Source: Tubulanus polymorphus (Eukaryota; Animalia; Nemertea). Taken from it: DNA of 64,000 bases. The notes beneath the pieces are model-generated. The model saw nothing but the letters and a program-made list of their open reading frames with translations. It made no database searches and was not told the origin of the DNA. The DNA is taken from NCBI RefSeq assembly GCF_964204645.1, contig NC_134031.1, positions 8,928,001 to 8,992,000 of the forward strand, given 5' to 3'. Position numbers and translations under genes: made by a program. Shown piece after piece: positions 6,414-57,996 of this stretch (its first letter is position 1; the number at the start of each line of letters is the position of its first letter).

Positions 6414-6729
6414 ATAATTTTAAGTTTGGAGTGACTGTTTTCTTTTTTTTAATTTGGCTATGAAGAGTGAACCTCTATCTTTGTATATTCACCAATTTTC
6501 TTTTCCTTTTATCAACAGATCTCTCTCAAATTGAAATCGAGGCACGGAAGAAAATTATAAAAGAACTCTTTCCAAATGCTACAGGGAAAATTCATTCTGC
6601 ATGCTTGCGTAATAACCGATGCACCCAGTGTTCGAATAGTGACAAAATAGTAACTAAAAATAGGATAAAACATTCGCTTTTTTGCACGAACGTCTCTACA
6701 AACGTAATACACGGGATGAAGCCAGTGAC

Positions 6730-9150
6730 ATAGATGGCTTATTTATATAGAAAATGATAGAATGTACTGTTCCATATGTAGAAAACATGATATGGTTGCC
6801 AAAAATAGTAAAAATAAAATATGGGCTGCTGATTCCTGTGTTAAAATAAGAACTGATGCAATTAGAGATCATTTGATGATTGAAAAACACAAAAATGAAT
6901 GCAGGCCAGCTCATTTTTTTCAAAATATACTCGAAAAAAGTGGAGGTAGAGATGGATGTGTTAAGATCAGTTTTCATTTCTTTGTACTGGATTCTAAAGG
7001 AGGAAATTGCTTTGGCCAAGGTACCAAGTTTGTATGATTTGCTAGAGGGCTGGGGTCTATGGAATTGAACTCTTTGATCACAGGTCACCTTTAATAGTTC
7101 AACAAATGGCATTGACTATTGCTGAAGAGATTAAGAAGTCATTTTTATGTGACATACGTGTCAATAATCATGTTTATGGTTTGTTAGTAGATTAAGCCAG
7201 TGACATCAGTGTTTGTGAGCAGCCCTTGACCTTTATTAGGCATGCCTCTTTTACCAATGGTGAATCTTGTACTAAGTGTTCATCTTCAGATAAACTTGTC
7301 GGTTCTGCTAATGCAGATAACATTACAGAGACTATAACATTGCAATTAAACAAGTGTGAATTATCTCCAGAGAAACTGAGCAGCATTGTGTCTGATGGGG
7401 TTTCAACTTTTACAGAAAGAAAAAATAGTGTAGTAGGAAAATTAAGAATTAAGAAACGAAATTCTTAGTATGGACTTTGCTAAATTGACATGAGTGTATG
7501 TTTAATCAGCATCAAAATTAAACATTGGTACTCTAGATTAGAGATTATAAGCAGAACAAATGAAAAATAGGGAAAACTTTTGGATTGAATTCAAATGACG
7601 GAGAAGACTGACTTTTTACAGATAATAAGATCGAAAATTAGGACGGAAAATATCAAGAAAAAAATGTCTTTTTTCGAATTATGAATGTCAACGCATAGGC
7701 CTACCTATCTTCGGCATGAAATTTTTGGCAGAATTCGTGCTCTAAGTAATCAAAAAAGCCTAAGATGTCCCCCTAGATTAAATCGATGAGTTTTCATGAA
7801 AATCTGTCTATTGATACGATCTCCATCACAACCAATTGCATGTTCATGAATATACATGGTGGCAGGTTTTCCCCACTGACTCTAATAGAAACACTCAGCT
7901 TCTATACACTGTGTACGAGGTTTGTTAGACAATTTACTTTCGTAAATTGAACAATTTTCAAGTTCCTATGTTTACTGTCCTTCTATAAAATTCACTGCTT
8001 TTCACGGCCAGCCGCGACGAACCCTGGCAGTTGAATCATTTGCAGTTTCCAGGAAAACTTTAACTAGGCAACGTGCGAGGCGCGCTTTTCATATACATGC
8101 ACAGATCACAGCGAGTCTGTAATGAGCACGTGTGTTTAGCATGAATAAATGTAAAAGGGCATGTGTTCTTCCGAAACGAAATATAGTTCCAACAACGAAT
8201 AACTAAATTGATAAATAAGCAACAGATTCCGATGAAATTCAATAGGGTTAGAACTTTTATTACTGCATTGAATGTTTTAAAAGTTCTAAAGAGAAACTTA
8301 GCCTCGTTTTGAAGTAATTTTGAAACCAAAGCAAGAAAGTTTCATATGTGATAACAAAATGGACTTCGCTAAAGCGAAAATCCATAATAAACCCTCATCT
8401 TTTGAACATACTCTGCATTTGCCATAGATTGGCTTTGTCCTGTACAGACACAGACAAGGCACTGCAACAAATTAATAATATGGTTCAGTTATTGACAAAC
8501 ATGTGGAAGTTTTTTGAGTATAGCCCTAGGAGGACATCTCTTTTTCTCGTATAAGCTAAATCTAAACTTGAGAACATAGGAATAAATGAGTCACATTGCC
8601 GAAAAGTTGGATCTAAAATCATGAAAGCATCTCGAACACGTTGGCTATTGGTTGAAGCAGGCCTTGTCTCTGCCATTGGTAGTTATGCAGCCTACAAGCC
8701 TTACGCTTGGAAAAGGAATATAGGAATGACGCTGTGGCGATAGGATTGGTACAACAGCTTAGCCAAATCAAAACGCTAGGAATTCTCTATTTGATGTTTA
8801 AGATTGTTCTGGTATTGACAGCCCTCAGTAGGATATCTCAGTAGGATATTCCAGGCTGGTGAAATAAATTTCAGCATGCTTAAACCAGCTATAACACATG
8901 TTAAAGAAAAAATAGAGAGCGTGGAATGTCCTATTGAATAGAGCTAAAAACTGACTTGGCAAGTACCCGTAAGTTAAGTCTTCTAGAAATGGAATATTGT
9001 CTGATCAAACTGAACGTCAAATATCAAATTTGTTCACTACATACAAGCTGCTACCATAGCCAATCTAGACAATAGGTTTAAAGATTAATTAGGGGTATTA
9101 GATGCTATTAGCATATTTGATCATATGACTCTGCCGAACAATCTAGACAA
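6730..9150 (+). pseudogene. Decayed hAT transposase (ZNF862/C17orf113-like), interrupted by an insertion at about 7470-8385
   Basis: Fragments in changing frames: MYCSICRKH...DHLMIEKH finger, LYWILKEEIA, LLVD*ASDIS, IVSDG, NPHLLNILCICHRLAL (CxxH), RTRWL. Confidence 0.85.
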
Positions 9151-12150
9151 TACTTATACTGAAGATTCGTAGCGTAGCCGTGTTGACCAGGTTTAGAATG
9201 AATAACGAGACGAGAAGTACTATATAGGTTAACTATTTATTTGATGCTTTCGCTACTCATGAATAGAAGCTTCATCAGGTGAATGTTTATACTATATCCA
9301 TTGAATTTGGATGTTGAAGGGCATCGTCATCATCATTGAGAAACAAAGGTCAAGGACTTTCGACATTAATGGGATAATGGCAACACCAGATGGTGCAACA
9401 AAACACTGGGCCATTAATCAATAAATAAATTAACATTATCTCAAAGAATGTTATCAATATGACATACTGCACATCAGTTTTCGAAATAATTGTACACCTG
9501 TTTTCGTAGTGAAAATCAGTTCATTTTCAATAAAATTTGAACTTGATCTTTAGGCTCCATAATCCGAAAAATATCAAACAAGTCATCGGATAAGATTCCG
9601 TTTCTCACTCAGTGTATGGTATTGATTTCACTGAAAACCCAGTGCCACTAGCAATCCTTATGGATTATTGCAGAATACTTACTTCCCTCAGCAGCCTTGC
9701 CGGTATCCCATTCCAACACCCATTTCCCTCCTACTGACAAAATATCAGCATTGTACCACCAAGAGCTAACAGAGAGCCAAGATCCTAAAAATGTGTATTC
9801 AAGTGCTGATTCTGCTGAACAACAATGGCTGCCAGCCCGCCATCTTGATTCTGACCGGGCAAGTTTTTGGGCAACAGATGTGTCTAAGGTAGATTCATCT
9901 ATAAACCAAATATCACAAGAAAGCGTATTGAAGAAAACTAGATTTTGTCTACAGACAAACGGAAGTAGGACACAAAAGTGAACGCAATAGCCTACTGGGA
10001 TATAAGTCCAAAGTGCCCAGTTCATGGTAAACCTACACGACATGATGCATATAGTGCCTCAAGAGCTAATAATAATTTAGATTGACTGTGTATATGATGA
10101 AAGTGAAGAACAAAAACTGAAGGAAACTCAAGCAACATATATAATATAAGAATAGATTTGAAAAAACTAGGGGCCCAGGGACACTGCACCCACTTGGGAA
10201 GTGGCTTGAAATGTTCAACAATCATATAATTTCAATATTCACTGCCCCCATGTAAAAATATAATGAAACCAATAACCTTGAAACTCGTCACGTAGAAAAT
10301 ATATCACGTTACAATTTTGCAACTGATTGTGGTATCAAAATATCCGTGTACACCAATACAATATGAAAATACGAAGTTACTTGGCTATTCAACGTCCCCC
10401 GGTGACCAATGACCTCGGTCGTAGAATATCCGTAGGTAACATTATGAATATAGTTGAACCTTGATAAAGGAAATTGGTCGGAAACATTAGACTGCAGAAT
10501 GGGAACAAACTCCAAAGTTGCTATTTCACACACCAAAAAGACTGTGGCGGCCATCTTGGATAACCTGTATATGTCAAAATCAATAATAGGGCACATCCTC
10601 CATCTATCATTAAACCACATATCAAGTAAATAGACGAGAGGTCCAAAGGTCCTATGCTCTCGAGGTCCAGTTTTTGAAATATTAATGAAAACATATTGAG
10701 GGATGAAAACGGCCCATATTGAAAAAGTCAGAAATATCTAAAAAAAAGAATTTTTTGGGGAACAAAAATCAGCAACTTTTAGCCAAAAAACTTACTTTCT
10801 TTTGGTCAAAATGTCATTAGTTTGGGCCTGAATAAAAGCCGCTTTTTGATAAGACGTCATATCAGTTTCTCCGACTCAACAGTTGTGCTAACTACCGCTG
10901 AAAACTGTCTTAAGGAGCACTCCTAACTACGGAGCGCTCCGATGTGACGCCAGCGATTGAGGTGATTAAAGCGATCGGGGCGATTAACACTGATCTCGGA
11001 AATAAAGAATATGTTAGAAAAGGTCGGAAATTCGTCTATTGTCGGAATTTTTTCATCCCTGCATATTACATTGTTAATTCTAGAGTGAGATATGGCCTAA
11101 TAGAGTCGGTTATAGTTCAAAAAGATCGACAGATATAACGGCCTTCCCAAGACTTTTCATGACCAATGTGTATCACTTTCAAAGACTTTTTAATAATTAT
11201 TGGACCGATAGTATGAGCATATGCTGTCACTGTAGCGTGTGCCAGTGTCAGACACTATCTGCTGGCCTCACGCGCGCTAACATGTGACATGGCTAGGCGC
11301 CAACTGGAATTTAAGACTGCTACTGACCCTTGGTGCAAGGTGCCTGTTCACACCAAGTGATGTAGTCTTCCGCATAATTATTCACCTTGTAAAATAAATT
11401 TATCTGGATGAATCATTGCTAAAATATAATTCAAAAATCTTTTTAATATTATTGTGATTAACCTCTATCACCATTCATCCCAATATAATCTATGCTATAA
11501 AGGAAAAACTGTCATTCTTCGTAACCAGTTTGCGCGAAATCTATTCATTGTTCGGTCATGAAACTTGGCATGTACACAGAGGAATAGATTCTCATAGTAA
11601 AGATAAAAATTTTATTTGGAACCAGAGTGTAATTTCCCCCAAATTTAAATCCCCAAAATCCCAGTAGATTCCAGAAGTCGGCAGTTTGATGGTGTGTACA
11701 AGCATGTACTGTGTTATCTGTTACTGCAGTGTTTGACCCAATTTGCACCAGATGAGATTATCACAATAACAGAATTTCACTGAGACATTTGTATCCCTAT
11801 ACAGAGCACTGCCAACCAGCCACTCCGACTCTCAGTACAGGGTGAACAAATTTCTAAACAAATATTTATTGTAAGGCATAGTAAGGATCCAGGAATAGAG
11901 GGGCATGTCGATAAAGGCCTAGACATTCTTCAGGCTTTGGGGAGAAAATGTCGCTTGAGGGGCATGTCACTCTCAGTGCTGGGTGAACAAATTGCAAAAA
12001 TATCTACTGTTATAGATCGAGGAATTGAGGGATATGTCGTGACATTGCTTGATGAGATTTAATTGTTAAAGTCAATAGGGATTTATTAGGCTAACATTTA
12101 GGGAGCCGCCCATAATTTTTTAACCCATCGAGGATGGGCATTTTTGCTTG

Positions 12151-14460
12151 TGTAACAAAATTTCATTTCTCAAGACAGATACCTCAATCCCCTTGGTTAT
12201 CAGCGACCGTGCAGAAGATACATTTCCCCTTACCTCAACTCCGGCGATAACCCGCGGCTCCTTAGTCCCGAAATTGTTCCCGGTGGTAAATAGTACCGCC
12301 GCTGTATTTATCTCGCCTTTTACACACTAAATAATTATCGAAAGTCATCATGTACGATACCGTTTGAAAGAGGATTATAAAGTCTTGACTCGGTGAAAGC
12401 ATCTACTAATGTCATCGTTTTTTTAGGCGACACGAGTTGTAGTTTGGTAGATGAACCGATTTCGCCGGTTTGTTTACTTCCGGTCCGGCCACATGATCCG
12501 CTCGATAAGCGGGAGAGTTAAAGTTTCTACGATGACGTCTTGTTACTGTCACCATAACATATCACCTTAGTATTTAGTCACATAAATTAAGTTCTTAGAT
12601 AATTATCATTATTACAAATCTAGAAGATGATTTCGGCACCTTCGTGCCTTAAAGCTTATGAGTATTCGACGGTTAAACCTGCGATCTCGAACGCGGTCAC
12701 GCATGACGACAGCCTTTCGGGACCTCACTTGTCTTTACGACCGAACTATCTGACACGAATTTCATATCATCGGAAAGTACAAGTTCCAACCTTTTTAATG
12801 GTATATTACTTCGATAAGAAGACAACGTAGTTCAGCAGCAAAGCGGCTCGGAAGAATCCTAGGAAGCACATCCGACGGGGCGGCCATTGTTGAGCGACCA
12901 GTGAAGCGACGCGGAGTGAAGATGCAACACATCGGAGTCGGCAATATCAGAATATAAGGCGCGCAGTTTTTCTCTTTCAGTTAGTTACTCGGAGAACGTC
13001 TTTAAGATGTAAGTCGGTCCGGGACAGCGCCGCTTGGCGGCGTTTCGGGTCTTGTACCCGTTCGTCTCTGTTCCTTCTTTCTGAGTTAGAAATTAAGGGC
13101 CTTAGGCCCACAGAATCCCCCTTACTGTAAATACGTTACTAGTCTTGAGTATTACTCTTTGTTAAGCATTAAGCTACGGCAAAATCATAGTACGATTTCC
13201 TCACCTATGGCCATAAGCCATTGGGCATTACGTTTACCGTCCATACTTATGTATTATTGACGGGCCCTGTGTTTCTCGTTTGTCCTTAGGATCGTTGAAC
13301 TATATATAATCCGTCAATACTTATGTATTAGGTATGGATTCTTGATACCAGGCCTTGGGTTCTTGCGTTTCTCCCCGTTTATACTTAAGTATATAGAGAC
13401 GGGTTTGACCATTACTTGTGCTTATAGCTTTATCAAACTATTATTCTGCCTTCATGTATGTGTGATATAGGTCCTTAAGACCAGCTTTCAAGCTGCGTAT
13501 CTTTAAGTTTCAATAAATTTTATATAGGTATAATGTTCGCGGTCTATATGTTCGTTGTATAAGTTTGAAGCGTAACAGCATGTGTCAATCGCATTATCTT
13601 TTCCCTTTGTAAGTATGTAAGCATTTGTGGAGTATGAACCTGTCTTGTATTTGAGCATGACGTATGTCGGTTTCTGATAGACGAATAAAAGCTGCTGTCG
13701 CAGCACGTAATGGTATTAACGATTTAGTAATAGATGTTGGGTAGTAAAACCGTGGAGTTGGTCGGAGCGTCCATGGTCTGTATAGAGGCTTACTCTCGGA
13801 AATGGTAGAGTCCAGCGGAACGTAGTGCAATCCCGTTCGGGTGACGGGCGGTTTCTGTTTATTCCGCTATCCAATTTAGGCTCAAGCGAGGAAATTCCAC
13901 GTCGGGGGTGGGTGACGTGGTGTGTGATACGGTCGATTCGGGTTCATGTATAACTACGAGGTCGTATGTTATTGGGTGAACAGAAGGGTGCGCATCGCTA
14001 TCTGTAGGTTCTAACATAGGGTTGGGCCCGATCCTTAGTTCCCGGAGGATAGTTTTCGAATCGACCCAGTCGTTACGTTCCTGGATCTATCAGCAATCTA
14101 CACCCGGGGTTGCGGGAATTGCTTACTCGTGTGCTAGGTCGAGTTAAGCCTGAGAGTCATTTATTATTCTACACACAAACATAACTTCCTGTGGTGGTCG
14201 TAGACCCCTTCATAAACATCTTTCCCGTTGTTTACGTGACACAGGCGGACCCTTTGTAGCGGCGCCATTTTACATACATCTATTACATAAGTACACATTT
14301 ACATATATACACTCTGAGGACATATAAGAGGATCACGCTACCGCTATGATCGACTCTGGTGCGAGTGAGTGCACACACTCGCCCGGTGAGTATTTTCAGG
14401 TACTATGTGGATGAAGAAACATGCTAAATTCTTAATGTATTCTAACTACGAAACGCTACA
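12151..14460 (+). repeat. 5' LTR (2310 bp)
   Basis: TG...CA termini, followed after 4 nt by the PBS. About 7 differences from the 3' LTR seen by eye. Confidence 0.96.
12953..13014 (+). promoter_or_regulatory. Putative LTR core promoter (TATA plus Inr), short exon 1 and major splice donor
   Basis: TATAAG at 12953-12958; TCAGTT and TTAGTT initiator-like motifs at 12977-12986, 26-30 nt downstream; AAGAT|GTAAGT with a perfect donor at 13009-13014. Duplicated in the 3' LTR (20908-20969). Confidence 0.65.
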
Positions 14461-14464
14461 AAAT

Positions 14465-14482
14465 TGGTGGCAGCGGTGGGAT
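14465..14482 (+). promoter_or_regulatory. Primer binding site complementary to the tRNA-Leu 3' end
   Basis: TGGTGGCAGCGGTGGGAT is the reverse complement of ...ATCCCACCGCTGCCA-CCA, the 3' end of animal tRNA-Leu(AAG/TAG). It lies directly after the 5' LTR. Confidence 0.92.
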
Positions 14483-14666
14483 AATAAATGTGCCATCTAC
14501 ATCAGAACTACCAGTGTTGTAAATGGTCATGCTCAGTACGTTTAGGTTACTCATGCTTACATACTCCTTTTATCGTTTACAGTCCCTTCCCTAAGGTAGT
14601 GAGTCTGTCATTCCTTTGCATTATCTAATGGTTTGATTTTTCTTGTATCAGAATTCCGTTGCTGTG

Positions 14667-15749
14667 ATGGCTAGTGAAGCGTCTAAACGTCCTAATACGC
14701 GAGGTCTGAAGAGGACACCGGCAGTGTCCCGAAGTAGAAGTCACGATGCTGCAATGCGTGACGGCGAACTTTCTCTACCCGGCGATAGCCTTGGGGTCGG
14801 CAGTACCGACCGTGGTCGGAGCAATAATAGTCCCCTGTCCGTGCATTTTGATACCGGGGATAATACGAATATCCCGGTATCATTCCCTTTGCAGTCCCCC
14901 TTGCATTCTTTCCCTTCTAATAGCGACGGTGGAGATAATGCCTCTACGTCGTTTAGTCGGCAGGATCGTGATTCTTTCTCTCTTGGTCGGCCTCAGTTCC
15001 GTGCGGTAGAGCCCGAGTCATATTCTGGTGAAGGTGTATGGGAGGACTACCTCCAGGTTTTCATTACCGCATCCGAGGTGAATCAATGGAACGATTCTAT
15101 GAAGGCGGCTATGCTTTTCACTCATCTTAAGGGCGCGGCTCGTCAGCTGGCTTGTTCCTTACCTTTCTCCGACCAGAGGGATTTTTCGCGTCTTGTACAG
15201 GCTTTGCATAACAGATTCGGAGCTAGCAATCAATCGGAGCTCTATCTGGCTGAAATACGTAATCGTAAACGTCGTAGGAACGAGTCCCTTCGTGAGCTCG
15301 GCCAGGCACTTATAACCCTTTCTAACCGTGCATATCCAGGTATGGATATGTTGCAACGTGACCGACTTTTGCGGACACACTTTCTTGATGCATTGGATGA
15401 TAGTGATCTTAGAATGAAGCTCTTCATGAGCAAATGTCAGTCCTTAGATGAGCTCATTATTCTTGCAGTGGAGCTTGAGGGATATGCTAAGTTGGAGCAA
15501 GAACGATTAACTGGGGGAAGGGTATTTGTTAAGAACGTAACCGGCAGGGAAAATGAGTCTACGGAGTTAGACCAGCTACGGGGGCAAGTAGCTGATTTGA
15601 CCAAGGCTGTATCCAAGCTTTCCATACCCAATGCTGGACCTCGTGATCTTTCTACCGTTCGTTGTTTTAATTGCGATCGGATGGGCCATTTCAGACGTAA
15701 TTGTCCTGATAGGTCGGGAAACTTCCGTCAGCGGGTCAAGCGGGAGTAA
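14667..15749 (+). CDS. gag: Gag polyprotein (360 aa)
   Basis: First ATG in strong context (GTGATGG) at 14667; retrotransposon capsid-like core (WEDYLQVF...NQWND...LKGAA); zinc knuckle CFNCDRMGHFRRNC. Confidence 0.95.
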   Translation: MASEASKRPNTRGLKRTPAVSRSRSHDAAMRDGELSLPGDSLGVGSTDRGRSNNSPLSVHFDTGDNTNIPVSFPLQSPLHSFPSNSDGGDNASTSFSRQDRDSFSLGRPQFRAVEPESYSGEGVWEDYLQVFITASEVNQWNDSMKAAMLFTHLKGAARQLACSLPFSDQRDFSRLVQALHNRFGASNQSELYLAEIRNRKRRRNESLRELGQALITLSNRAYPGMDMLQRDRLLRTHFLDALDDSDLRMKLFMSKCQSLDELIILAVELEGYAKLEQERLTGGRVFVKNVTGRENESTELDQLRGQVADLTKAVSKLSIPNAGPRDLSTVRCFNCDRMGHFRRNCPDRSGNFRQRVKRE

Positions 15750-15763
15750 GCCCTGCTGCTGAC
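15716..15763 (+). promoter_or_regulatory. -1 programmed ribosomal frameshift signal (gag to pol)
   Basis: Slippery heptamer G GGA AAC (15716-15722) in the gag frame. The -1 frame is open into the protease. Downstream stem GTCAGC/GCTGAC with inner AGCGGG/CCTGCT (15727-15763). Confidence 0.85.
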
Positions 15764-16249
15764 TTATCTCCCACTACACAAATGCACGAGACAGAGAAAC
15801 CCATAGTAAAAGATTCTTTGAGACTTCCTATAATAGTCGAAGGTGTTAAACTCAATTGCCTTGTGGACACTGGAGCATCAGTGTCTATCCTAAATCATAA
15901 CTGCTATTACCGGCTGGGTGAACATACGTCTTCGCCCCCCTTGTCGGATACTTCATTAAACCTCCTAACAGCTAATAAAACTCCCATTCGCTCGTTAGGC
16001 CACACGAATGTTGAAGTAAAGCTGTTCCAAAAACCTGTACATTGGAAATTCGTGGTCGCAGATATCAGTGAAGATGTCATTTTAGGCATGGATTTCCTAT
16101 CCTTCTTTGACTGTCAGATCTTTCCTAAACGCCGGACCCTCATATGTGGCAATGAGCAACTTCATGCAAAATCTCCCAGTAACGGAGCTTGTCTCAATAT
16201 TGTTTCCTCTTGTCAGAGAGTAGTTATAGGCCCCCTTCGGAAGCGTTAA
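15716..16249 (+). CDS. pol: Pol N-terminal part: aspartic protease
   Basis: LVDTGASVSIL active site and ILGMDFL motif; reached by the -1 frameshift. Confidence 0.93.
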   Translation, partial: GKLPSAGQAGVSPAADLSPTTQMHETEKPIVKDSLRLPIIVEGVKLNCLVDTGASVSILNHNCYYRLGEHTSSPPLSDTSLNLLTANKTPIRSLGHTNVEVKLFQKPVHWKFVVADISEDVILGMDFLSFFDCQIFPKRRTLICGNEQLHAKSPSNGACLNIVSSCQRVVIGPLRKR

Positions 16250-19200
16250 TCGCGGGCGTGGCTATGGATATCGAAGCCTATAGCAAGTGGGCATTAGTCG
16301 AACCTCGCATTTCTAGTAATATCACTGACGGTCTGATGGTTGCCCGCTGCCTTGTGGATACCGAAACTCATGCAATTCCCGTTCGAGTGTTCAACTCAAC
16401 GGACCATCCAGTCACCGTCCCCCAGGGTTGTTCTATTGCTTCCATGGTCTCAATTGCGAGTCTCGATGACGCTCCGTCAGACGAAGACGTACCTGACTCT
16501 TCAGATTCGCATTCAGTTAATCATATCAATTGCAACACCCCTGATTACCTTACAGATCTAATTGAACGCAGTTCTGAAGGATTCAATGATAAAGACGCTG
16601 CGAAGATTCGCGAGTTGATTTCAAATTATTCGGACATATTCGTCCAATACGATATGGATCTTGGTACCGCTAAGGGTATAAAGCATACTATCGACGTTGG
16701 TAATGCTCGTCCCGTTAGACAGCGACCCCGTCGTCTGCCCCAGGTAAAACAAGACGAGGCTGATCGTCAAGTTAAAGAAATGCTCGAAAAAGGGGTCATA
16801 GAGCCATCCACCAGTCCTTGGGCAAGTCCCGTCGTCTTAGTTACCAAGAAAGACGGCAGTACCCGTTTCTGTATAGATTACCGAAGATTAAATGAAGTCA
16901 CGCTAAAAGACGCGTATCCCCTTCCTCGCATTGACGATTCTCTGAGATCCCTCCACGGTGCCAAGTATTTCTGTGTTATGGATTTAGCTAGTGGTTATTG
17001 GCAGGTCGAGCTCGACGAAGATGCGAAGGAAAAATCGGCGTTCGTGATGAGAAATGGCTTGTATCAGTTTAAGAAAATGCCTTTCGGCCTATGTAACGCA
17101 AGCGCCACGTTCGAACGCCTTATGGAGAACGTCCTATCCTCGTTGCAATACGAAATCTGTCTGGTTTATCTAGACGACGTGATAGTTTTTGGCTCGTCCC
17201 TTGATGCCACGTTAGAAAACCTTGGACGGGTATTTGAGCGCTTCCGCTTGTCTGGGTTAAAGTTAAAGCCTAAGAAGTGTCATTTCTTTCGAGCGTCGGT
17301 CCAATACTTAGGCCATATCGTCTCCGAAGCTGGCGTTTCTTGCGATCCCGAAAAATTGAGAGCAGTGAGCGAGTGGCCTATTCCACGTACAGTCACAGGA
17401 GTCCGCTCTTTCATGGGTCTCGCATCGTATTACAGGTCTTTCTGTCCGAACTTTGCAGCCGTAGCTAAACCCCTCCATCGTCTCACCGAGAAGGGTAGAG
17501 AGTTCCTTTGGACTGCTGAGTGTCAACGAGCGTTTGAAACTTTGAAGTCGCTGCTCACTACATCCCCTGTACTAGCCTATCCTGATCTGAGAATTCCTTT
17601 TATCCTTGACACTGATGCAAGTGATACGGGCATCGGTGGTGTTCTTTCTCAGGTACACGCTGGTAGTGAAAGAGTCATAGCTTATGCCAGTCGTTCGTTG
17701 TCTAAAGAACAACGCAATTATTGCGTAACCAGGAGAGAATTATTAGCCGTTGTCACGTTTGTCAAATATTTTCGACATTATCTATGGGGTACTCGCTTTA
17801 CTTTGCGAACTGACCACGGATCCCTTAGGTGGCTTACCTCCTTTAAAGAACCCGAAGGCCAAGTAGCTCGGTGGATAGCCGTCCTTAGCACGTACGATTA
17901 TGAACTCCTTCACCGCCCCGGGCGAAACCACGGAAATGCCGACGCGTTATCACGTCAGAACTGTTCGCAGTGTCGTAGGATTGAGCATAAGAGTAGATCG
18001 CCCGCACCCTCTGACGATGTAGGCGTTAATACTATCGGCAGTGTCACTACCACGATAGGTTTCTCTCTACTTCCGCATTGGTCAAAAAAAGAGTTAGCGT
18101 CCGCTCAGCGCTGTGACCCGGAGTTCCGATGGATACTTCGCAAGTTGAAAGATAAGGTCCGCCCTACTCACGAAGAGTCTGCTTCTAAGGGCCCGTTTGA
18201 CCGTTTCTATTCTACCCGTTGGGAGAACCTCCGTTTCGTGGATGGTTTGCTTCACATCATTAAGCACAGGGAAGGTCTCTCCGATTCGACTATCCTACTT
18301 TTACCGAAGCAGTTTCGACAGGAGGTGCTCGAACATTTTCACGGCCACCTTGTTCGTGGGCACTTTGGCGTCAAGCGCACATTGACCGCAATACACGGCA
18401 GGTACTTTTGGTACGATATAAAGAGCGATGTCGCCGTTTGGTGCAGAAATTGTGAGTTGTGTCTCTCCCGGAAAAGTCCTACTCGGCCAAATCACGGTCC
18501 TCTACAGTCCTCGGTAGTTGGGTTCCCTATGCAAAAAGTTGCCATGGACATCGTTGGTAATTTCCCTAGAACTAGCCGTGGTAATATCGCCATACTTGTC
18601 GTAGCTGACTACTTCACTAAGTGGGTGGAGGCATATCCTATCGCCAACAAGGAAGCTGTCACGATAGCCGAAATTCTTACCCGTGAATTCTTCCCCCGTT
18701 TTGGAATACCTGATCAATTACATTCCGATCAGGGTAGCAACTTCTTGTCTAAAATCATGAAGGAGGTATGCGAACTCCTCCGCATAAGGCAAACCCGTAC
18801 TAGTCCTTATCACCCGCAATCCGACGGTCTCGTCGAGCCATTCCATCGCACATTAGTATCGGAGCTTTCTCTAGTAATTGAAGAAAGTCAAGATGATTGG
18901 GATCTGCAGCTTCCGTTCGTAACTATGGCTTATCGAGCCTCCAGGCACGATGCTACTGGTTTCACTCCTAACTTTCTTATGTTGGGTCGTGAGCTCCCTG
19001 CGCCTTTGGATCTTTTATCCGGAAGATCGTTGTCTCTTGCACAAGAACAAACTTCTTATGCCCGTGAACTCCGCGAGCGTATTTCCACCGCTTATGACCG
19101 CAATCGGAACTCCTTAGGTCGACGTATAGTCTTCATGAAAAACCAGTATGACAAAAAGGCTCGAGGACACCCTTTTCGTGTCGATCAGTTAGTTTGGTTA

Positions 19201-19482
19201 CATCAACCCGCCGTGCCTCTCGGTAAATCTCCGAAACTTTGGAAGCATTGGGTTGGTCCTTGTACTATCGTCCAAGTCCTTAATGGCGTAACTTATCGTA
19301 TCCGGTTGCCTAATGCCTCTGAGAAAGTGGTTCACTTCGATCGTCTCAAAATCCATCCTTGTCCGGATGAGGTCATTTCCCCTTCAGTCCCTCGTGCGAT
19401 TGACACTGCTAATCCTCATGTAGCAACGAAAACTCGTAGTGGAAGGGTCGTACACCGTCCCGTTCGATATTCGTGTACTTAA
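16189..19482 (+). CDS. pol: Pol: reverse transcriptase, RNase H, integrase (frame break relative to the protease near 16235)
   Basis: RT (WASPVVLV, RFCIDYRRLN, MPFGL, YLDD); RNase H (TDASDTGIG, ELLAVV, TDH, ADALSR); integrase (HH...CxxC, D-D-E core, GPCTI, C-terminal TRSGR). Confidence 0.97.
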   Translation: MSQYCFLLSESSYRPPSEALIAGVAMDIEAYSKWALVEPRISSNITDGLMVARCLVDTETHAIPVRVFNSTDHPVTVPQGCSIASMVSIASLDDAPSDEDVPDSSDSHSVNHINCNTPDYLTDLIERSSEGFNDKDAAKIRELISNYSDIFVQYDMDLGTAKGIKHTIDVGNARPVRQRPRRLPQVKQDEADRQVKEMLEKGVIEPSTSPWASPVVLVTKKDGSTRFCIDYRRLNEVTLKDAYPLPRIDDSLRSLHGAKYFCVMDLASGYWQVELDEDAKEKSAFVMRNGLYQFKKMPFGLCNASATFERLMENVLSSLQYEICLVYLDDVIVFGSSLDATLENLGRVFERFRLSGLKLKPKKCHFFRASVQYLGHIVSEAGVSCDPEKLRAVSEWPIPRTVTGVRSFMGLASYYRSFCPNFAAVAKPLHRLTEKGREFLWTAECQRAFETLKSLLTTSPVLAYPDLRIPFILDTDASDTGIGGVLSQVHAGSERVIAYASRSLSKEQRNYCVTRRELLAVVTFVKYFRHYLWGTRFTLRTDHGSLRWLTSFKEPEGQVARWIAVLSTYDYELLHRPGRNHGNADALSRQNCSQCRRIEHKSRSPAPSDDVGVNTIGSVTTTIGFSLLPHWSKKELASAQRCDPEFRWILRKLKDKVRPTHEESASKGPFDRFYSTRWENLRFVDGLLHIIKHREGLSDSTILLLPKQFRQEVLEHFHGHLVRGHFGVKRTLTAIHGRYFWYDIKSDVAVWCRNCELCLSRKSPTRPNHGPLQSSVVGFPMQKVAMDIVGNFPRTSRGNIAILVVADYFTKWVEAYPIANKEAVTIAEILTREFFPRFGIPDQLHSDQGSNFLSKIMKEVCELLRIRQTRTSPYHPQSDGLVEPFHRTLVSELSLVIEESQDDWDLQLPFVTMAYRASRHDATGFTPNFLMLGRELPAPLDLLSGRSLSLAQEQTSYARELRERISTAYDRNRNSLGRRIVFMKNQYDKKARGHPFRVDQLVWLHQPAVPLGKSPKLWKHWVGPCTIVQVLNGVTYRIRLPNASEKVVHFDRLKIHPCPDEVISPSVPRAIDTANPHVATKTRSGRVVHRPVRYSCT

Positions 19483-19510
19483 CTCTTAACCCTTTCTTTT
19501 GTCTTCGCAG

Positions 19511-19937
19511 GCCTACGTGTAAAGTATGTGAAGGGGTTTTCCCCGCCTCTGCTATCGAGTCACACATGATGAAGTACCATAATAGCTCGGCGATCGAGGC
19601 ACCCGTTAGAGCCACTCCCTCTACCAGTAAATTGGATCTCATCTTGTCACAGGTCACCGAGGCTGGAGCGGGAGGCGAACCAGCGCCGAAACTTATCACA
19701 GTAAAAAAACGGAAGCGGGTCCCCGTTTTACCTCCTCGTTTCCCGCCTAAAGAGCCAATCGTCCTTTCACCAAACGCAACGAGACGGGATGCTTCAACAC
19801 AGACGGACGCCCCCGCCAATAGAGAGTATGTGCTATTGCACGAACACCTGGGTGTGAAGTATCTCGGCTACGCCGGGGATGCGGTTGACTGTGCGCAATG
19901 CCGCGTATACCTCGCACAGAACAAACATTTGTTGTAA
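19511..19937 (+). CDS. ORF3: putative spliced accessory zinc-finger protein (142 aa if AT at 13007-13008 is joined to G at 19511)
   Basis: Open frame between the pol stop and the PPT with no ATG ahead of the finger. Preceded by branch point CTTAAC, a pyrimidine tract and CAG (19485-19510). Encodes CKVC-x11-H-x4-H, KKRKR, DASTQTD and HEH...CAQC. No signal peptide or TM helix. AATAAATAAA follows the stop. Confidence 0.75.
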
Positions 19938-20093
19938 CCAATAAATAAACGCTGAATTTGACAAAATAATAGTAATTCCTTATTCTTCTTCCGAGGTATT
20001 ATCCGTCTTCAACGTTCGACTCAATTTGGAAATCTGTTGATCACCTCCCCTTGAGAAAATTTTGTTGCTATATTGTTCGACCTTGTTCGGTCT

Positions 20094-20103
20094 GGCAGGG
20101 GGG
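20094..20103 (+). promoter_or_regulatory. Polypurine tract
   Basis: GGCAGGGGGG, 2 nt upstream of the 3' LTR. Confidence 0.85.
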
Positions 20104-20105
20104 TG

Positions 20106-22414
20106 TGTAACAAAATTTCATTTCTCAAGACAGATACCTCTATCCCCTTAGTTATCAACGACCGTGCAGAAGATACATTTCCCCTTACCTCAACTCCGGC
20201 GATAACCCGCGGCTCCTTAGTCCCGAAATTGTTCCCGGTGGTAAATAGTACCGCCGCTGTATTTATCTCGCCTTTTACACACTAAATAATTATCGAAAGT
20301 CATCATGTACGATACCGTTTGAAAGAGGATTATAAAGTCTTGACTCGGTGAAAGCATCTACTAATGTCATCGTTTTTTTAGGCGACACGAGTTGTAGTTT
20401 GGTAGATGAACCGATTTCGCCGGTTTGTTTACTTCCGGTCCGGCCACATGATCCGCTCGATAAGCGGGAGAGTTAAAGTTTCTACGATGACGTCTTGTTA
20501 CTGTCACCATAACATATCACCTTAGTATTTAGTCACATAAATTAAGTTCTTAGATAATTATCATTATTACAAATCTAGAAGATGATTTCGGCACCTTCGT
20601 GCCTTAAAGCTTATGAGTATTCGACGGTTAAACCTGCGATCTCGAACGCGGTCACGCATGACGACAGCCTTTCGGGACCTCACTTGTCTTTACGACCGAA
20701 CTATCTGACACGAATTTCATATCATCGGAAAGTACAAGTTCCAACCTTTTTAATGGTATATTACTTCGATAAGAAGACAACGTAGTTCAGCAGCAAAGCG
20801 GCTCGGAAGAATCCTAGGAAGCACATCCGACGGGGCGGCCATTGTTGAGCGACCAGTGAAGCGACGCGGAGTGAAGATGCAACACATCGGAGTCGGCAAT
20901 ATCAGAATATAAGGCGCGCAGTTTTTCTCTTTCAGTTAGTTACTCGGAGAACGTCTTTAAGATGTAAGTCGGTCCGGGACAGCGCCGCCTGGCGGCGTTT
21001 CGGGTCTTGTACCCGTTCGTCTCTGTTCCTTCTTTCTGAGTTAGAAATTAAGGGCCTTAGGCCCACAGAATCCCCCTTACTGTAAATACGTTACTAGTCT
21101 TGAGTATTACTCTTTGTTAAGCATTAAGCTACGGCAAAATCATAGTACGATTTCCTCACCTATGGCCATAAGCCATTGGGCATTACGTTTACCGTCCATA
21201 CTTATGTATTATTGACGGGCCCTGTGTTTCTCGTTTGTCCTTAGGATCGTTGAACTATATATAATCCGTCAATACTTATGTATTAGGTATGGATTCTTGA
21301 TACCAGGCCTTGGGTTCTTGCGTTTCTCCCCGTTTATACTTAAGTATATAGAGACGGGTTTGACCATTACTTGTGCTTATAGCTTTATCAAACTATTATT
21401 CTGCCTTCATGTATGTGTGATATAGGTCCTTAAGACCAGCTTTCAGGCGCGTATCTTTAAGTTTCAATAAATTTTATATAGGTATAATGTTCGCGGTCTA
21501 TATGTTCGTTGTATAAGTTTGAAGCGTAACAGCATGTGTCAATCGCATTATCTTTTCCCTTTGTAAGTATGTAAGCATTTGTGGAGTATGAACCTGTCTT
21601 GTATTTGAGCATGACGTATGTCGGTTTCTGATAGACGAATAAAAGCTGCTGTCGCAGCACGTAATGGTATTAACGATTTAGTAATAGATGTTGGGTAGTA
21701 AAACCGTGGAGTTGGTCGGAGCGTCCATGGTCTGTATAGAGGCTTACTCTCGGAAATGGTAGAGTCCAGCGGAACGTAGTGCAATCCCGTTCGGGTGACG
21801 GGCGGTTTCTGTTTATTCCGCTATCCAATTTAGGCTCAAGCGAGGAAATTCCACGTCGGGGGTGGGTGACGTGGTGTGTGATACGGTCGATTCGGGTTCA
21901 TGTATAACTACGAGGTCGTATGTTATTGGGTGAACAGAAGGGTGCGCATCGCTATCTGTAGGTTCTAACATAGGGTTGGGCCCGATCCTTAGTTCCCGGA
22001 GGATAGTTTTCGAATCGACCCAGTCGTTACGTTCCTGGATCTATCAGCAATCTACACCCGGGGTTGCGGGAATTGCTTACTCGTGTGCTAGGTCGAGTTA
22101 AGCCTGAGAGTCATTTATTATTCTACACACAAACATAACTTCCTGTGGTGGTCGTAGACCCCTTCATAAACATCTTTCCCGTTGTTTACGTGACACAGGC
22201 GGACCCTTTGTAGCGGCGCCATTTTACATACATCTATTACATAAGTACACCTTTACATATATACACTCTGAGGACATATAAGAGGATCACGCTACCGCTA
22301 TGATCGACTCTGGTGCGAGTGAGTGCACACACTCGCCCGGTGAGTATTTTCAGGTACTATGTGGATGAAGAAACATGCTAAATTCTTAATGTATTCTAAC
22401 TACGAAACGCTACA
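20106..22414 (+). repeat. 3' LTR (2309 bp)
   Basis: Copy of 12151-14460 with one 1-nt indel, preceded by a purine tract. Confidence 0.96.
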
Positions 22415-27520: not shown

Positions 27521-29542
27521 TTTCAAAATAATAAATTCTATCAGTATAATTTAATTCGAAGTGTGGGATTTCTTCATTTATTCGAAGTTCCATTGCACCC
27601 ATAGGCGTGCAGCAAAACGCGTAATTCTAAAACGCATACTTGTCCCTAACGAGTGTCAAACACATTTGGAACTAAACGAAAATGAATAACAGAACGCGGT
27701 GCGAACAATATAAAAGTAAAAGTTCAGTTTTTTCCAAGGCTGTACTGTACTAAAGAATTTCAAAACAGGGAGATGTTGATTTCTATACAGAATTTTGTCA
27801 TCTTGTAGCCCAAATCGAAAACTTGTAGCCCAAATCAAACGGAACGCCTCATCTTGGAATAAGTTGGTCTAACTAGTGGAGTCACGCAAGGTAGTATCCT
27901 AAGTCGTCTTCTGTTTAATGTCCTGACAGATGACATACACAGTGATCCAAAATATACCAGACCGAGTAAATTTCCAAAACGACCTTAACACTGTTCGACC
28001 AAAAAACTTAAGGTTCCGACAAGAAAATCTTGTTCGAATGAAAATAATTGTGTTTGATCGAACAATACGCTTTTTGTTTGAACCAAAACTTTTCTTCATT
28101 CTGACAAAAAATGTGTTCGAATAAAAAGCTATGTTATTGTTGAAATGAAAAACTTTTTGTCCCGGCAAAAAAATTTGGTTGTGCGAAAACAATTTTTTCG
28201 AACGAATGTTTGAATGAAAACAATTGTTCGATTGAACGAAATACTTAATACTTTTGGTTCGGAGAAAAAACTTTTTACAATATACTAGATATATGAGTTG
28301 ATATATGAGTTTCTTACGACCACCACGAATTGATCACAGACCGACCATACACTGAAATGCAAGGATAGAACAAGTTCTATTTTCAAGGCAATCGGCGAAA
28401 AGTTTTGCATCACATGACTTTGAGACTCGGCGATGATCGAGTCATAGTAGACCTGAGTGCTCTTTAAGATCCAGAGACAAACTAATTGCAATCAGCATTC
28501 ACATGTGTACTACCGCTGTTCTTACGACGATCTAGTTGGTGGTAAGTGTAAGATGATCTGAGATTGGCTTCAGAATATGAGCCTGCTTGCAGTTTATTGT
28601 GTAATACTGGCAAAAACCGTCGTTTCAAGTGTCTCCATTTCTAATGCATGCTCGTCAGAGAAAGTCAGGAAATGGAATGAGTGTGCAGGTGTCATGACAT
28701 GTGCGTTCAGATGCATGAACATTTGCGGTGCAGTTTGTTTGGTCGTCCTTCATAGCATAGATAATCTTATGTATACATTTATTAAATCAAGTGACTTATC
28801 CAAATAAATTAATTCAATGCATCATGATTCATATCATATATATTTCTCTCTTTTTATTAAATCAATAAATCAGAGTTTCATAAGTTAAGTTGACTATTTT
28901 GAACTAAAATCTGTGGAACTGGATCAGTGTAAAGCGTTCTTCATTTTTTGTCAATAATGGGGAACCGGCACACCAGCTATCCCGTCAGATGATGCCACCG
29001 AGATATCAGATGCACTCGATCAAAATTAGTTCATTTTCAAGTAACTTTGATCTCAATTTTCAGTCTTCCAATCCAACTAAGGGTCCAGGGACACCATGCC
29101 CACTGAGAAAGTGGTTTCAACAATCTAACAATTTCAATATTCAATGCCCCCTGGTGACCATACACAAAAATCAATAATCTTGAAACTCATTACAATCATA
29201 GAAAATGTAGCAACTACAATTTTGCAATTGATTTTGATAACAATAAATGCCTTGGTACCAATATAATATGGAAATACTAAGTTATCCCACTATTCCACGT
29301 CCCCTGGTGACCATATGCAAACCCCAATGACCTTGAAACTCACTACAATCATAGAACATGTCATGAGCTACAATTTTGCAATTGGTTGTGGTAACAATAA
29401 ATGCCTCGGTACCAATATAATATGGAAAGTTTTTCAACTATTCAACATCCCCTGGTGACCATATAGAATAACAAATGACCTTGAAACTCACCCCAATCAT
29501 AGACCATGTCATGAGCTACAACTTTGCAATTGACTGTGGTAA

Positions 29543-30594
29543 GGCATAAAATAAAAAATTCTTTGTTTCCGGTCCCACTTGTATGATTTTTATGGGTAGG
29601 TAGGAATGGAATCAAAAAAGAAATTTTTCTGGGTGTTCAACACATCAAAGTAGTATGTCCAGAAAGTCCAAAAGCATGTACAGTAGACCGTCAGTCGACT
29701 ATCGGATTGTTATTGGTTGCAATCACGATGCGATTGATACAATATGATTTGGCAAAAGAAATTGAAATAATGAGTGCGATTGAAATAGATAAAATTCTCT
29801 ATCAAACAACAAACTTGATTAAATTAATCGTTATTTACTATTCTTTTTGGGAACAAGCTTGATACCTTTAAACTCTTTGTTGCCTGTTCGTCATGATTAG
29901 GTTTTTCATGCTTATAAATTCCTCTAAATCCATAAAAACATCGCCCAAAATCATCGCAACCTAGCTCCTGTCAAACATCTGTCAACAGCCACCAGAGTAA
30001 ATCACACTAATTACAGCCAAGAACCGATGCGGCTAAAAAGGAGGTCGTGTTTACAAATATTTTCAATTTCAATTCGATTTGTTTTTTTCTCTCATTATGA
30101 CCTAATAAATAAAGCAAAATAATGAACTGATACTTAAATAAATTATCTTAGATCGGCCTATTGTCAAAAGATTGCACACTGCAAGCATCGTTATTGATAT
30201 TTTTACAGCAGTGTGTGCTGTTGTAAAGTAAGGCGCCTGAGAGTGTAGGTTGTTCCCCCGGTGACAGCCAGCTGATCAATGTATTGTACTGCACTGCATG
30301 CTTGTGGGAAGCACAGCCACGTGTATCTCAGTTCACACTAGCGGCAAACACACTTAGCGTGTCAACTGGCAGAACTTTCTACGATGTTTTTAAATCAAGA
30401 AGTCACGTATTATGACAATTCCAATATGAACACAAAAAAGGTTTTACATCAAAAATGATTTTTTGCTTTTAATTTTTCACTGGCCGGATAAAAATTTTAT
30501 CTTTTTTTACTAAACTTCCATAAAAATGTTTGGGTCGGCACCTTTTTGATTGGGTCGGTCGGGGGACTGGAAACAAAGACTTTTAATTCATGCC
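29543..30594. mobile_element. PIF/Harbinger-like MITE
   Basis: ~35-bp imperfect TIRs (GGCATAAAATAAAAAATTCTTTGTTTCCGGTCCC / GGGACTGGAAACAAAGACTTTTAATTCATGCC); TAA TSD; interrupts one 150-bp unit. Confidence 0.8.
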
Positions 30595-31657
30595 TAACAA
30601 AATATGCATAGGTACGAATATAATATCGAAATGCTAAGTTATTGTATTATTCAATGCCCCCTGGTGGCCATATATAAAAACCAATGACCTTGAAACTCAC
30701 CACAATCATAGAACATGTTATGAGCTACAGCTTGGCAATTGATTGTGGTAACACAATATGCTTAGGTACCAATATAATGCGGAAAAACATTTTTCCACCT
30801 ACGAATGAGTACTGATGACACCAAGATGGCCACCAATTGCATAATAATTGGCTGATCAAAAATACCTGTCTCAGTGATTTAAGATCCCTTTCCATAGAAT
30901 AGCCACCATAAATTTCAATGAAAGATGACAAACCAATAGGAAGCTACACGACTCAGAATTCGGGCAAAAATTGACATTTTTGGGTATAAAAAAGGTCACA
31001 CAGGACAGCCATCCTGAGTCCGATCGACCCAATTTCGCTTAAGCTGATGGGCCCTTGGGGGATACAAATAAATGTGAAAGATCAAGATAATTGATCAAAG
31101 CGTCTTCAAAATTTCCCTTGAAAACTTTAACAAGAAATTCTAAAAATGGGCTTGCTGGCATGGCTGCCCTGAAAGCTTGCTTAGTGGTTTTGTATTTCTG
31201 TAGTAGAATTCATCAAACTATGAACTGTTTACTTTTTGAAGAGCGAAGAGTTCGGTGTTGTCTTACATCGTTACATGAAATTTTACACACGGGACTGGGG
31301 ATCGAAATGATTTTATTGTAGACGCGGACAAAGTTAGTACAAGCTTTTGGATAGTTGTTATTTGAATATTGAAGTGTCTTAACGAAATCTATCATGTTAT
31401 CATGTTGATAATTGCTAGATTAGTTGTCAGATTGTGTTGAAATGATTTTGCTAGAATAAATTTACAGCTGAAAGAAACTAGGGGTCCAGGGACATGGGCA
31501 TGGTTTCAAATGCTCTAACAATTTCAATATTCAACGCCCCCTGGTGACCATATACAAAAACCAAAGACCTTGAAACTAACCACAATCATAGAACATGTCA
31601 GCAGCTACGATTTTGTAATCGATTGTGATAACAAAATATGCCTCGTTACCAATTTAA

Positions 31658-32222
31658 CACGTTCACAGCCACCTAGTGGTTTAACGTCCGGTCGCCATTG
31701 CCAACGCTAATTTTTTACATTATACAATTTATATACTGCCAGCACTATTTGTACATTGATAGATAAATACACTGATCTATTTTAGTGTAAAAAACCAATG
31801 ACGAGATAACTCGTCACTGGCACTGGTGAAGAGATTCTCAATTTTTTCTTGTCCCCATTGCCAGTGAAAAGCGTGAAAAATCGAATAAAAATCTAAAAGA
31901 ATAAAAGTTTTATTTTAAAAATGATATAGAATGATTTTAGTCGTTATATTCTCTCTTAATATTGGCCGGAAAAGAAGCTAAAATGCATTGCTTTCTGAAG
32001 ATTTTTTAGAAAAAATTTCAAGTGTGCACCAGACTTGAGTTACCCCCATAAATAATATCTTAGTCTCTCCATACTGCCAGACAATTATTATCTGGTTTCT
32101 CGCCTCTGCCAGGTCATTCATAACGCTGTAAAATGACATTGAATCGATGACGATATAACTCGTCATGGCAAACTGCGGCGCACCCACCATGAAGATTTAG
32201 CTCGTCAGCGGCAGCGAACGTG
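31658..32222. mobile_element. piggyBac-like MITE
   Basis: TTAA|CACGTTC...GAACGTG|TTAA inside a 150-bp unit. Confidence 0.85.
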
Positions 32223-33492
32223 TTAATATGGAAATACTAAGTTATTCTACTATTTAATGCCCCCTGGTGACCATATTTAAAACCCAATAACCTTGTTACT
32301 CACCATAATCATAGACCATGTCATGAGCTACAACTTGATTGTGGTAAGAAAATATGCATTGGAACATATTTTGTTATCATGACCAATTGCAAAGTTGTAG
32401 CTCATAAAATGTTCAATGATTATGGTGAGTTTCAAGGTCATTGGGCTTCGCATATGGTCACCAGGGGGTGTTGAATAGTAGAATAACTTAATTCAAGTTA
32501 TGCTACTATTCAACGCCCCCTGGTGACCATATTCAAAACCTAATGTCCTTGACTCACCACAATCATGGTCATGAGCTACAACTTTGCAATTGGTCATGAT
32601 AACAAAATATGCCTAGGTACCAATCTAATAAGGAAATACTAAGTTAGTCTACTATTCAACGCCCCCTAGTGACCAAATAGAAAAACTAATGTCCTTGAAA
32701 CTCACCACAATCATAGACGATGTCATGAGCTACAACTTTGCAATTGATTGTGGTAACATAACATGCATTGGTACAAATATGATATAGAAATACTAAGATA
32801 TTGTATTATTCAACGCCCCCTGGTGGCTATATACAAAAACCAATGACCTTGAAACTCAACACAATCATAGAACACGTTATAAGCTATAACTTTCTACTTC
32901 ATTGTGGTTACAATATATGCTTAGGTATCAATATAATGTCAAAAACTTTTTCCCAACTACGAATGAGTACTGATGACACCAAAATGGCCACCAATTGCGC
33001 CATAATTGGCTGATCAAAAATACCTGTCCCGGGTATAAAACATCCCTTTCCAAAGAATACCCATCAGCAATTGCAATGAGAAATGGCAAACCAGTAGGAA
33101 GCTACAGGACTTCTAGCCATCTTGAGTCCGATCGACCCAATTTTTGTTATGCTGACGGGCCCTGGGGGGATACAAATATATACGAAGCATCGAGGTAATT
33201 GATCAAAGCGTCTTCAAAATTTCCCTCAAGTTCAAAAACGTGTAAAAAGTGCTGATTTTGGTGAACAACAATGGCTGCCAGTCTTGAATCTGAGAGGGCC
33301 AGTTTTTGGGCTGAAGATGTGTCTAGGGTAGATACATGTGTAACCCAAATATCAAGACATTACATTGAAGCGTCTTCAAAACTTCCCAAAATAACTGGAT
33401 TCCGTCTATGGACGGACGGACGGATGGACGACGGACGAAAAGCAATAGCCCGCTGGGACTCGAGTGACTTCAGGTGAAGAGAAGCGAACACA

Positions 33493-57820: not shown

Positions 57821-57996
57821 AAACAAGAGATCCACGGATCTTAATATCTCGGGCGCAGAATGTTATCTTTGTAAAGTATAGGCGCCATCTGATTGATGCA
57901 TCTTTAAGGTTTTCCTTGAACACTTCATGGATGTATAATCTGCTGATTTCAGTGAACAACATCATCGAAATCTAATCAGCAATCATCGCGGCAATA

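Follow-up and report, generated by a model that had tools for sequence, protein, structure and literature searches.

ORF3, a small open reading frame that follows pol in a Gypsy-type LTR element of Tubulanus polymorphus, is almost certainly a real protein-coding gene under purifying selection, and its start codon is likely made by RNA splicing, with AT supplied by an upstream exon and G by the first base of the ORF3 exon. The element lies in a stretch of 64 kb that was analysed as a whole (the window, from whose first base all positions are counted). The picture drawn in an earlier note on this DNA, a Gypsy ORF that is neither env nor chromodomain, has a zinc-finger-like N-terminus and is not recognised as a described one, is supported by the analysis, which adds that this third ORF is under selection; the nuclear location and LC8 binding proposed there are plausible.

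The element that carries ORF3

The element spans 12149-22414, about 10.3 kb, and has the following parts:

12149..14460, plus strand: 5' LTR of 2312 nt, TG...CA, differing from the 3' LTR by 6 substitutions and 1 indel
14465..14482, plus strand: primer-binding site, an 18-mer also present in the relatives L003 and L006
14667..15749, plus strand: gag with a CCHC knuckle (Pfam)
15713..16249, plus strand: protease portion of pol (ORF list, Pfam)
16183..19482, plus strand: reverse transcriptase, RNase H plus integrase portion of pol (Pfam)
19511..19937, plus strand: ORF3 exon, one base that finishes the start codon, 141 codons and a stop
20094..20103, plus strand: polypurine tract
20104..22414, plus strand: 3' LTR of 2311 nt

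Both the domain order identified with Pfam, gag followed by PR-RT-RH-IN, and the pair of TG...CA LTRs with primer-binding site and polypurine tract are those of Ty3/Gypsy elements. The primer-binding site is one that we take to be of the tRNA-Leu type. As the LTRs diverge by about 0.3%, the insertion is young; three of the six LTR substitutions fall within the first 55 nt. The pol gene of this copy is frameshifted between protease and reverse transcriptase, near 16.2 kb. No target-site duplication of 4-6 bp was found at 12149-22414, where the flanks share at most 2 bases, and the element is possibly a recombined, converted or altered copy. Its nearest pol is P0001 (66% identity), and in a tree built from 45 of the 96 sequences it clusters with P0001 and P0003 (support 1.0); the named pol relatives come from sponge, spider and fish and are 44-47% identical. 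The region from ORF3 to the 3' LTR has no unusual RNA structure (z=+0.99).

Elsewhere in the window no host gene was recognised among the 80 ORFs of 75 aa or more. An ORF fragment with reverse transcriptase and GIY-YIG-like parts lies in a long inverted duplication at 50214-52357 and resembles by eye a 5'-inverted Penelope-like element, with no Pfam match. Members of a dispersed many-copy repeat family with units of about 150-154 nt occupy 29116-33343 and 56851-60248, and matches to DUF1759 (37379-37633) and zf-C17orf113 (6729-7034) are likely decayed transposon pieces.

Selection on ORF3 and its copy classes

The ORF3 coding frame runs from 19512 to 19937 and comprises 141 codons, or 142 aa with the splice-made methionine; when the 621-nt region after pol was shuffled 5,000 times, a stop-free run of at least 141 codons turned up in 1.3% of cases. 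Copies were compared in the contigs of three runs (X1-X3; two samples from one study), which contain, besides the main class, a second, diverged class (about 83% identical; 85 differences along 498 nt spanning ORF3). Substitutions were counted from the 32 differences of the diverged class that are common to X1-X3, drawn from 40 of the 95 difference rows; the 8 rows left out are three outside ORF3, three alignment variants restricted to X2 beside a compensating +1/-1 pair, one replacement relative to the window in all contigs and one replacement in HEH in the main class of X3. The comparison covers ORF3 up to 19843 except for 19696-19795, with the candidate nuclear localisation signal inside the excepted interval and CAQC beyond the end.

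Third codon positions hold 25 of the 32 differences (p=2.7e-7), and 23 of the 32 are silent, where neutral evolution would give 24-30% (p at most 1e-6); the value of omega is about 0.13-0.16 in the diverged class, calculated from these 32 differences. The ratio of silent to replacement differences is 6:1 in the finger (counted in codons 1-24), 10:6 in the linker and 7:2 between TQT and HEH, and the two differences at the TQT site in the compared rows are both silent. For gag and pol of the same class, 16 silent and 11 replacement differences were counted in 27 rows, which does not differ significantly from ORF3 (Fisher p=0.41). The diverged class carries compensating indels that keep ORF3 in frame, and the other five frames fit worse and each acquire one or two stops in that class. 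An antisense ORF at 19409-19867 was rejected because of two stops in the diverged class. A captured host fragment that evolves neutrally, a possibility raised in the earlier note, is ruled out by the silent excess.

A different kind of change affects the 3' end of ORF3. Five bases near 19853 are duplicated in the main class of both X1 (depth 65.7 of 97.8) and X2 (43.7 of 66.3), depth not being copy number; this duplication occurs neither in the main contig of X3 nor in the diverged class. It shifts the frame past about residue 115 and removes the CxxC, whereas finger, nuclear localisation signal and TQT are kept. The HxH/CxxC tail described in the earlier note is present in the window, as HEH (19839-19847) and CAQC (19890-19901), but is lost from an abundant copy class, so that copies can be abundant without having the tail in cis. 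X1 and X2 also contain internally deleted derivatives (16545-19942), which lack the greater part of pol together with some or all of ORF3 and are candidate non-autonomous copies. The abundance of broken-tail and deleted copies fits an action of ORF3 in trans.

A start codon probably assembled by splicing

The initial methionine of 'MPTC', with which the protein had been taken to begin, is absent from the DNA, where 19509-19511 reads AGG; 'MPTC' needs an AT from an upstream exon. The frame is open from 19440, and its first genomic in-frame ATG is residue 19, within the finger. Signals that would provide the missing bases are found in the LTR and around ORF3:

12953..12982, plus strand: putative promoter, TATA-like box (12953) and initiator-like site (12977), by consensus match only
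12980..13008, plus strand: putative first exon of ~29 nt without internal ATG, ending in AT, read from the sequence
13009..13014, plus strand: splice-donor consensus GTAAGT, the first donor after the putative promoter
19478..19510, plus strand: branch-point-like sites, pyrimidine tract and CAG acceptor, shared with other copy classes
19940..19949, plus strand: two overlapping AATAAA just 3' of the stop of ORF3, which may serve as an internal poly(A) signal

The AT before the donor at 13009 and the G at 19511 together make an ATG in the ORF3 frame, and of the 6 donors matching the consensus from the putative start site to 19400 this first one alone yields a methionine at the junction. Donor 13609 could provide a methionine 9 codons upstream of ORF3, and a weaker donor at 13617 is likewise preceded by AT. 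The acceptor-like AG ending at 19510 has 17 pyrimidines in 21 positions, tied for the highest count with four others among the 146 YAG sites of the internal region, and acceptor-like sites with equal pyrimidine content also occur within gag and pol. In one copy class, 5 additional bases lie within the tract just upstream of this AG, and another aligns to the window only from 19502 onward, both of which fit an intron/exon boundary; with two AATAAA within 15 nt of the stop, ORF3 looks like a self-contained terminal exon. No splice joint was present in the X1-X3 contigs, whose depth profile, with LTR depth several times the internal depth, looks like DNA; X4 gave no matching contig.

The arrangement, a donor ending in AT and an acceptor followed by an in-frame G, is that of the Drosophila melanogaster gypsy env, also a third ORF after pol, whose ATG is described as assembled by splicing from donor AT and acceptor G (PMC2585583). 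ORF3 differs from gypsy env in that its product has no signal peptide, TM segment or env size, and in that its putative donor sits inside the LTR, some 30 nt past the putative start site, with the junction read from sequence signals. From these signals and the gypsy env precedent, the ORF3 mRNA would quite probably link the LTR exon, whose last base is 13008, with the exon that starts at 19511, and possibly end at the AATAAA behind the stop. A start codon made in this way is missed by ORF callers.

Three other ways of starting the protein were considered less likely, namely read-through or frameshifting from pol into the open stretch 19440-19510, where one copy class has 5 extra bases; initiation at Met19, by which both cysteines would be lost, yet codons 16-18 differ only silently; and a Gag-ORF3 fusion, for which gag contains no consensus donor. 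Two further features were seen in these regions. The initiator-like site follows a pyrimidine run and CAG (12965-12980), and the short exon ending in AT could be an internal micro-exon. A second acceptor-like site lies by eye at 14620-14651, just before the gag ATG, and ranks outside the top 8 by pyrimidine count.

Motifs of the ORF3 protein

The motifs read in the protein by the earlier note are all encoded in the window:

19518..19580, plus strand: C2H2-type finger, C-x2-C-x11-H-x4-H, predicted beta-beta-alpha (sequence, model, weak matches)
19704..19718, plus strand: KKRKR, candidate nuclear localisation signal (sequence)
19782..19808, plus strand: RRDASTQTD, candidate LC8/DYNLL site (sequence, published LC8 rules), with DASTQTD in frame at 19788-19808
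19839..19901, plus strand: HEH...CAQC tail, cut off by the 5-base duplication near 19853 in the abundant copy class

The linker is rich in Pro, Ser and Ala as had been claimed (54% P/S/T/A/G/E over 80 residues). Neither a hydrophobic signal nor a TM segment is present, the highest 19-residue Kyte-Doolittle mean being 0.54; with this hydropathy and 141 codons the protein is not env, from which a signal peptide, a TM anchor and several hundred residues would be expected. That it is not a chromodomain protein was likewise borne out, as Pfam detects no chromodomain at E up to 1 in ORF3 or in the integrase C-terminus. A leucine-rich export-signal pattern is absent. Shuffling the residues 20,000 times reproduced the finger pattern in 0.16% of cases, five consecutive K/R in 0.26%, TQT in 0.3% and all three jointly in none, for patterns that were picked after the sequence had been seen; a plain K[KR]x[KR] turned up in 13%.

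For residues 1-23 the predicted fold is that of a beta-beta-alpha finger. When residues 1-32 were modelled alone, two short strands and a helix at 12-23 were obtained with a best pLDDT of 82 (53-73 in the other four models), whereas the model of the whole protein is poor (pLDDT 50) and was left out of the fold search. Tested as a C2H2 finger, the segment has the ligands and core residues and its model fits, while its spacing is x11, one residue shorter than classical in the BCL11A alignment, and every match is sub-threshold. The only Pfam match is to the WRNIP1 UBZ (PF18279; E=0.011 for the finger alone, 16.7 bits against a cut-off of 26.4). UBZ4 fingers of the WRNIP1 type have a C2HC ligand set; with a score below cut-off and His as fourth ligand, the ORF3 finger falls outside this class. 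BCL11A ZF6 is a weak match (E about 0.1) that shares the H-x4-H spacing and aligns with a gap of one residue. In fold searches the top Foldseek row is again the WRNIP1 UBZ (rmsd 0.7 over 18 columns, E=3.8), and by Z-score AFV1p06 or Kaiso come at 3-4, with a best Z of 4.0, so that neither sequence nor structure searches returned a significant match to the finger.

At the TQT anchor, the flanking residues R-5, D-4, S-2 and D+2 are favourable or allowed by published rules and Ala at -3 is unfavourable (PMC6607443). The site thus agrees with the rules for LC8/DYNLL clients in all but the -3 position. Many TQT peptides fail to bind LC8 (PMC6607443), and binding by ORF3 is plausible judging by its sequence.

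Homologues and relatives of ORF3

That ORF3 is unlike described Gypsy ORFs, as the earlier note had stated, agrees with the outcome of the protein, metagenome and PDB searches, which gave no homologue. A word-indexed search yielded 104 candidates among proteins of 77-247 aa, none at E up to 0.01; HMMER found none at E up to 0.001 in 1.84 billion representative proteins; none of 389 pattern matches in metagenome contigs was confirmed; the whole protein had no match at E up to 10 among PDB sequences; and tblastn against 80 integrase-bearing loci gave a best E of 0.63. In the ESM Atlas, ORF3 falls at 0.91 to an unnamed cluster, with recognition under the reliable level. Literature searches turned up no description of ORF3 or of a transposon-encoded TQT protein; Repbase, Dfam, GyDB and paper supplements, which were outside their scope, may record ORF3. 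Titles and abstract openings on retrotransposons, LC8 and TQT named no transposon-encoded client.

Scanning 11 of the 64 parts of a metagenome collection for integrase gave at least 80 loci; viral contigs contained no integrase relatives. Of the 52 loci that extend at least 600 nt past the stop of pol, a sense ORF of at least 150 codons lies within 1 kb in 11, a count that includes five taken by length alone (L014, L040, L043, L068, L072) and one, L001, that looks like gag of a following copy. Two loci from a primer-binding-site scan were set aside, since L081 looks like phage and L082 is a different retroelement. L003 and L006, with the same 18-nt primer-binding site as the element studied here, both have a post-pol Cys/His ORF after an acceptor-like AG. 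That of L003 (7989-9540) starts with CxxC-x5-H-x3-C, and a second post-pol frame of this locus contains four T/V/I-Q-T/V/I anchors, one of them a true TQT; a true TQT was found in 1 of the 7 post-pol frames checked, this one, at a background of about 2.5% per 141 residues (148 pol proteins). The ORF of L006 (5807-7450, 547 codons) has two C2H2-like fingers (E=1.5e-4) and in a search returned no homologue except itself. Since each of these ORFs begins with an ATG of its own and cannot be aligned with ORF3, a shared layout rather than a protein family is suggested. Two more post-pol ORFs were viewed by eye: that of L023 (1020-1862), after an acceptor-like AG and ATG, has a K/E-rich stretch and SPHRR-type repeats and an RNA-binding look, and that of L028 (3054-4502, 482 codons) resembles the rotifer DEDDy exonuclease ORF3s, with no such Pfam match.

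Other accessory proteins in Gypsy-class elements have been described. CERV of C. elegans Cer1 is spliced and nuclear, has a KRKK signal and a Cys loop, multimerises and is needed for the export of unspliced RNA (PMC10309623). ORF3 is likewise a Gypsy-class accessory protein with predicted splicing and a candidate nuclear localisation signal, but CERV has 517 aa, a segment in common with Gag, and H, M and G domains; it also has a candidate export signal and predicted ring self-assembly (PMC10309623). By its description ORF3 is set apart from CERV, having 142 aa, a mostly low-confidence model, a C2H2 finger and TQT; its size and the lack of a consensus donor in gag place it outside the CERV family. 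Vesta and Juno of bdelloid rotifers also have family-specific non-env ORF3s after pol, typically from spliced messages; these are GDSL esterases, DEDDy exonucleases, coiled-coil or TM proteins, and 'zinc' does not occur in that text (PMC5408684). The planarian Burro/GYPSM1 elements are Gypsy-like and carry accessory ORFs including zinc-finger and ubiquitin-related domains, but they are 25-30 kb long with recognisable captured domains (PMC6431247), as opposed to about 10.3 kb and one orphan ORF here. The main text of a survey of env-carrying metazoan Gypsy elements contains neither 'zinc finger' nor 'accessory' (PMC13524379).

Possible functions of ORF3

By analogy with CERV, ORF3 may be a nuclear, LC8-paired protein that acts in trans so that the element's unspliced RNA accumulates and exits the nucleus, a reading that we favour tentatively. 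Splicing from a donor about 30 nt after the putative start site to a terminal acceptor would by default excise primer-binding site, gag and pol, which full-length RNA has to avoid; the export role is favoured on this ground and because CERV solves that problem. The protein would probably be imported through KKRKR. An LC8 dimer, about as likely as its absence, would hold two ORF3 chains parallel and so make the single finger and basic patch bivalent. The target could be the element's own intron-containing RNA, with a switch from early spliced to late unspliced RNA as with CERV or Rev, a step that is somewhat doubtful. Several observations weigh against this reading, splicing included: CERV and Rev have candidate export signals and ORF3 lacks the leucine-rich pattern; at 142 aa against 517 it has none of the CERV domains; Ala at -3 is unfavourable for LC8; and AT-preceded donors are not rare (13617 is another), with equal acceptor-like sites in gag and pol. 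To our knowledge, gypsy splices env without a Rev-like protein, and the architecture therefore does not demand one.

Nearly as likely is a chromatin role, with the same gene and splicing, in which the LC8-paired finger and basic patch would bind the long LTR and activate it or shield it from silencing. The closest weak matches of the finger, BCL11A ZF6 and AFV1p06 or Kaiso, are DNA-binding C2H2 fingers, an ESM Atlas cluster at 0.86 has GAGA in 12% of its members (a lead only), and the two C2H2-like fingers of the L006 post-pol ORF point the same way. LC8, moreover, dimerises a nuclear transposon-silencing complex in flies and so works in that arena (PMC7861614). As in LC8 clients with a TQT anchor, such as Panoramix in PICTS/SFiNX, the TQT of ORF3 lies in a predicted disordered stretch, with favourable R-5, D-4 and D+2 (PMC6607443; PMC7861614), but ORF3 differs from these in its single candidate site, in Ala at -3 and in being encoded by a transposon rather than the host. 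Panoramix is described as having no clear homologue outside insects (PMC7861614), the finger is one residue under classical spacing, and residues 12-15, near the predicted helix start, differ between copy classes, all of which speaks against a chromatin role.

An unlikely reading makes the finger a module that binds ubiquitin (UBZ-like) or some other protein, and ORF3 an adaptor that would recruit or degrade a host restriction or chromatin factor. The x11 spacing fits, and the WRNIP1 UBZ is both the only Pfam match and the top Foldseek row; the bit score lies under the curated cut-off, the fourth ligand is His, the E-value of the Foldseek row is 3.8, and the acidic residue by which UBZ fingers contact ubiquitin is presumably absent.

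Still less probable is that, through the TQT, RNA or particles of the element are attached to dynein or a different cytoplasmic LC8 complex and carried towards the nucleus or the oocyte, for although the motif is a good one by published rules and the L003 post-pol frame clusters a TQT with three similar anchors, KKRKR suggests a nuclear protein and LC8 is mostly a dynein-independent dimerisation hub (PMC7861614). It is very improbable that ORF3 has no function at present, as a frame that is decaying or arose by chance, and this reading has largely been refuted: no homologue was found and an abundant copy class is frameshifted, but the strong silent excess and the in-frame compensating indels of the diverged class speak against it.

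With its separable motifs, the 142-aa protein offers an easy test of how elements of this kind move unspliced RNA out of the nucleus or withstand silencing. It is conceivable, and on balance improbable, that an invertebrate Gypsy lineage resembles complex retroviruses in splicing a short LTR leader to a fast-evolving post-pol zinc-finger protein that recruits LC8 for dimerisation and controls the element's RNA or chromatin. If this were true, ORF3 would be a transposon-encoded LC8 client on the same hub that fly piRNA silencing uses. Complex retroviruses are distinguished by their regulatory accessory proteins, and among animal LTR retrotransposons CERV was the sole characterised example that the literature search brought up; two distant relatives, L003 and L006, share a similar layout. 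Because a small, selected orphan gene with a splice-made start escapes ORF callers, such genes may be widespread and lack annotation.
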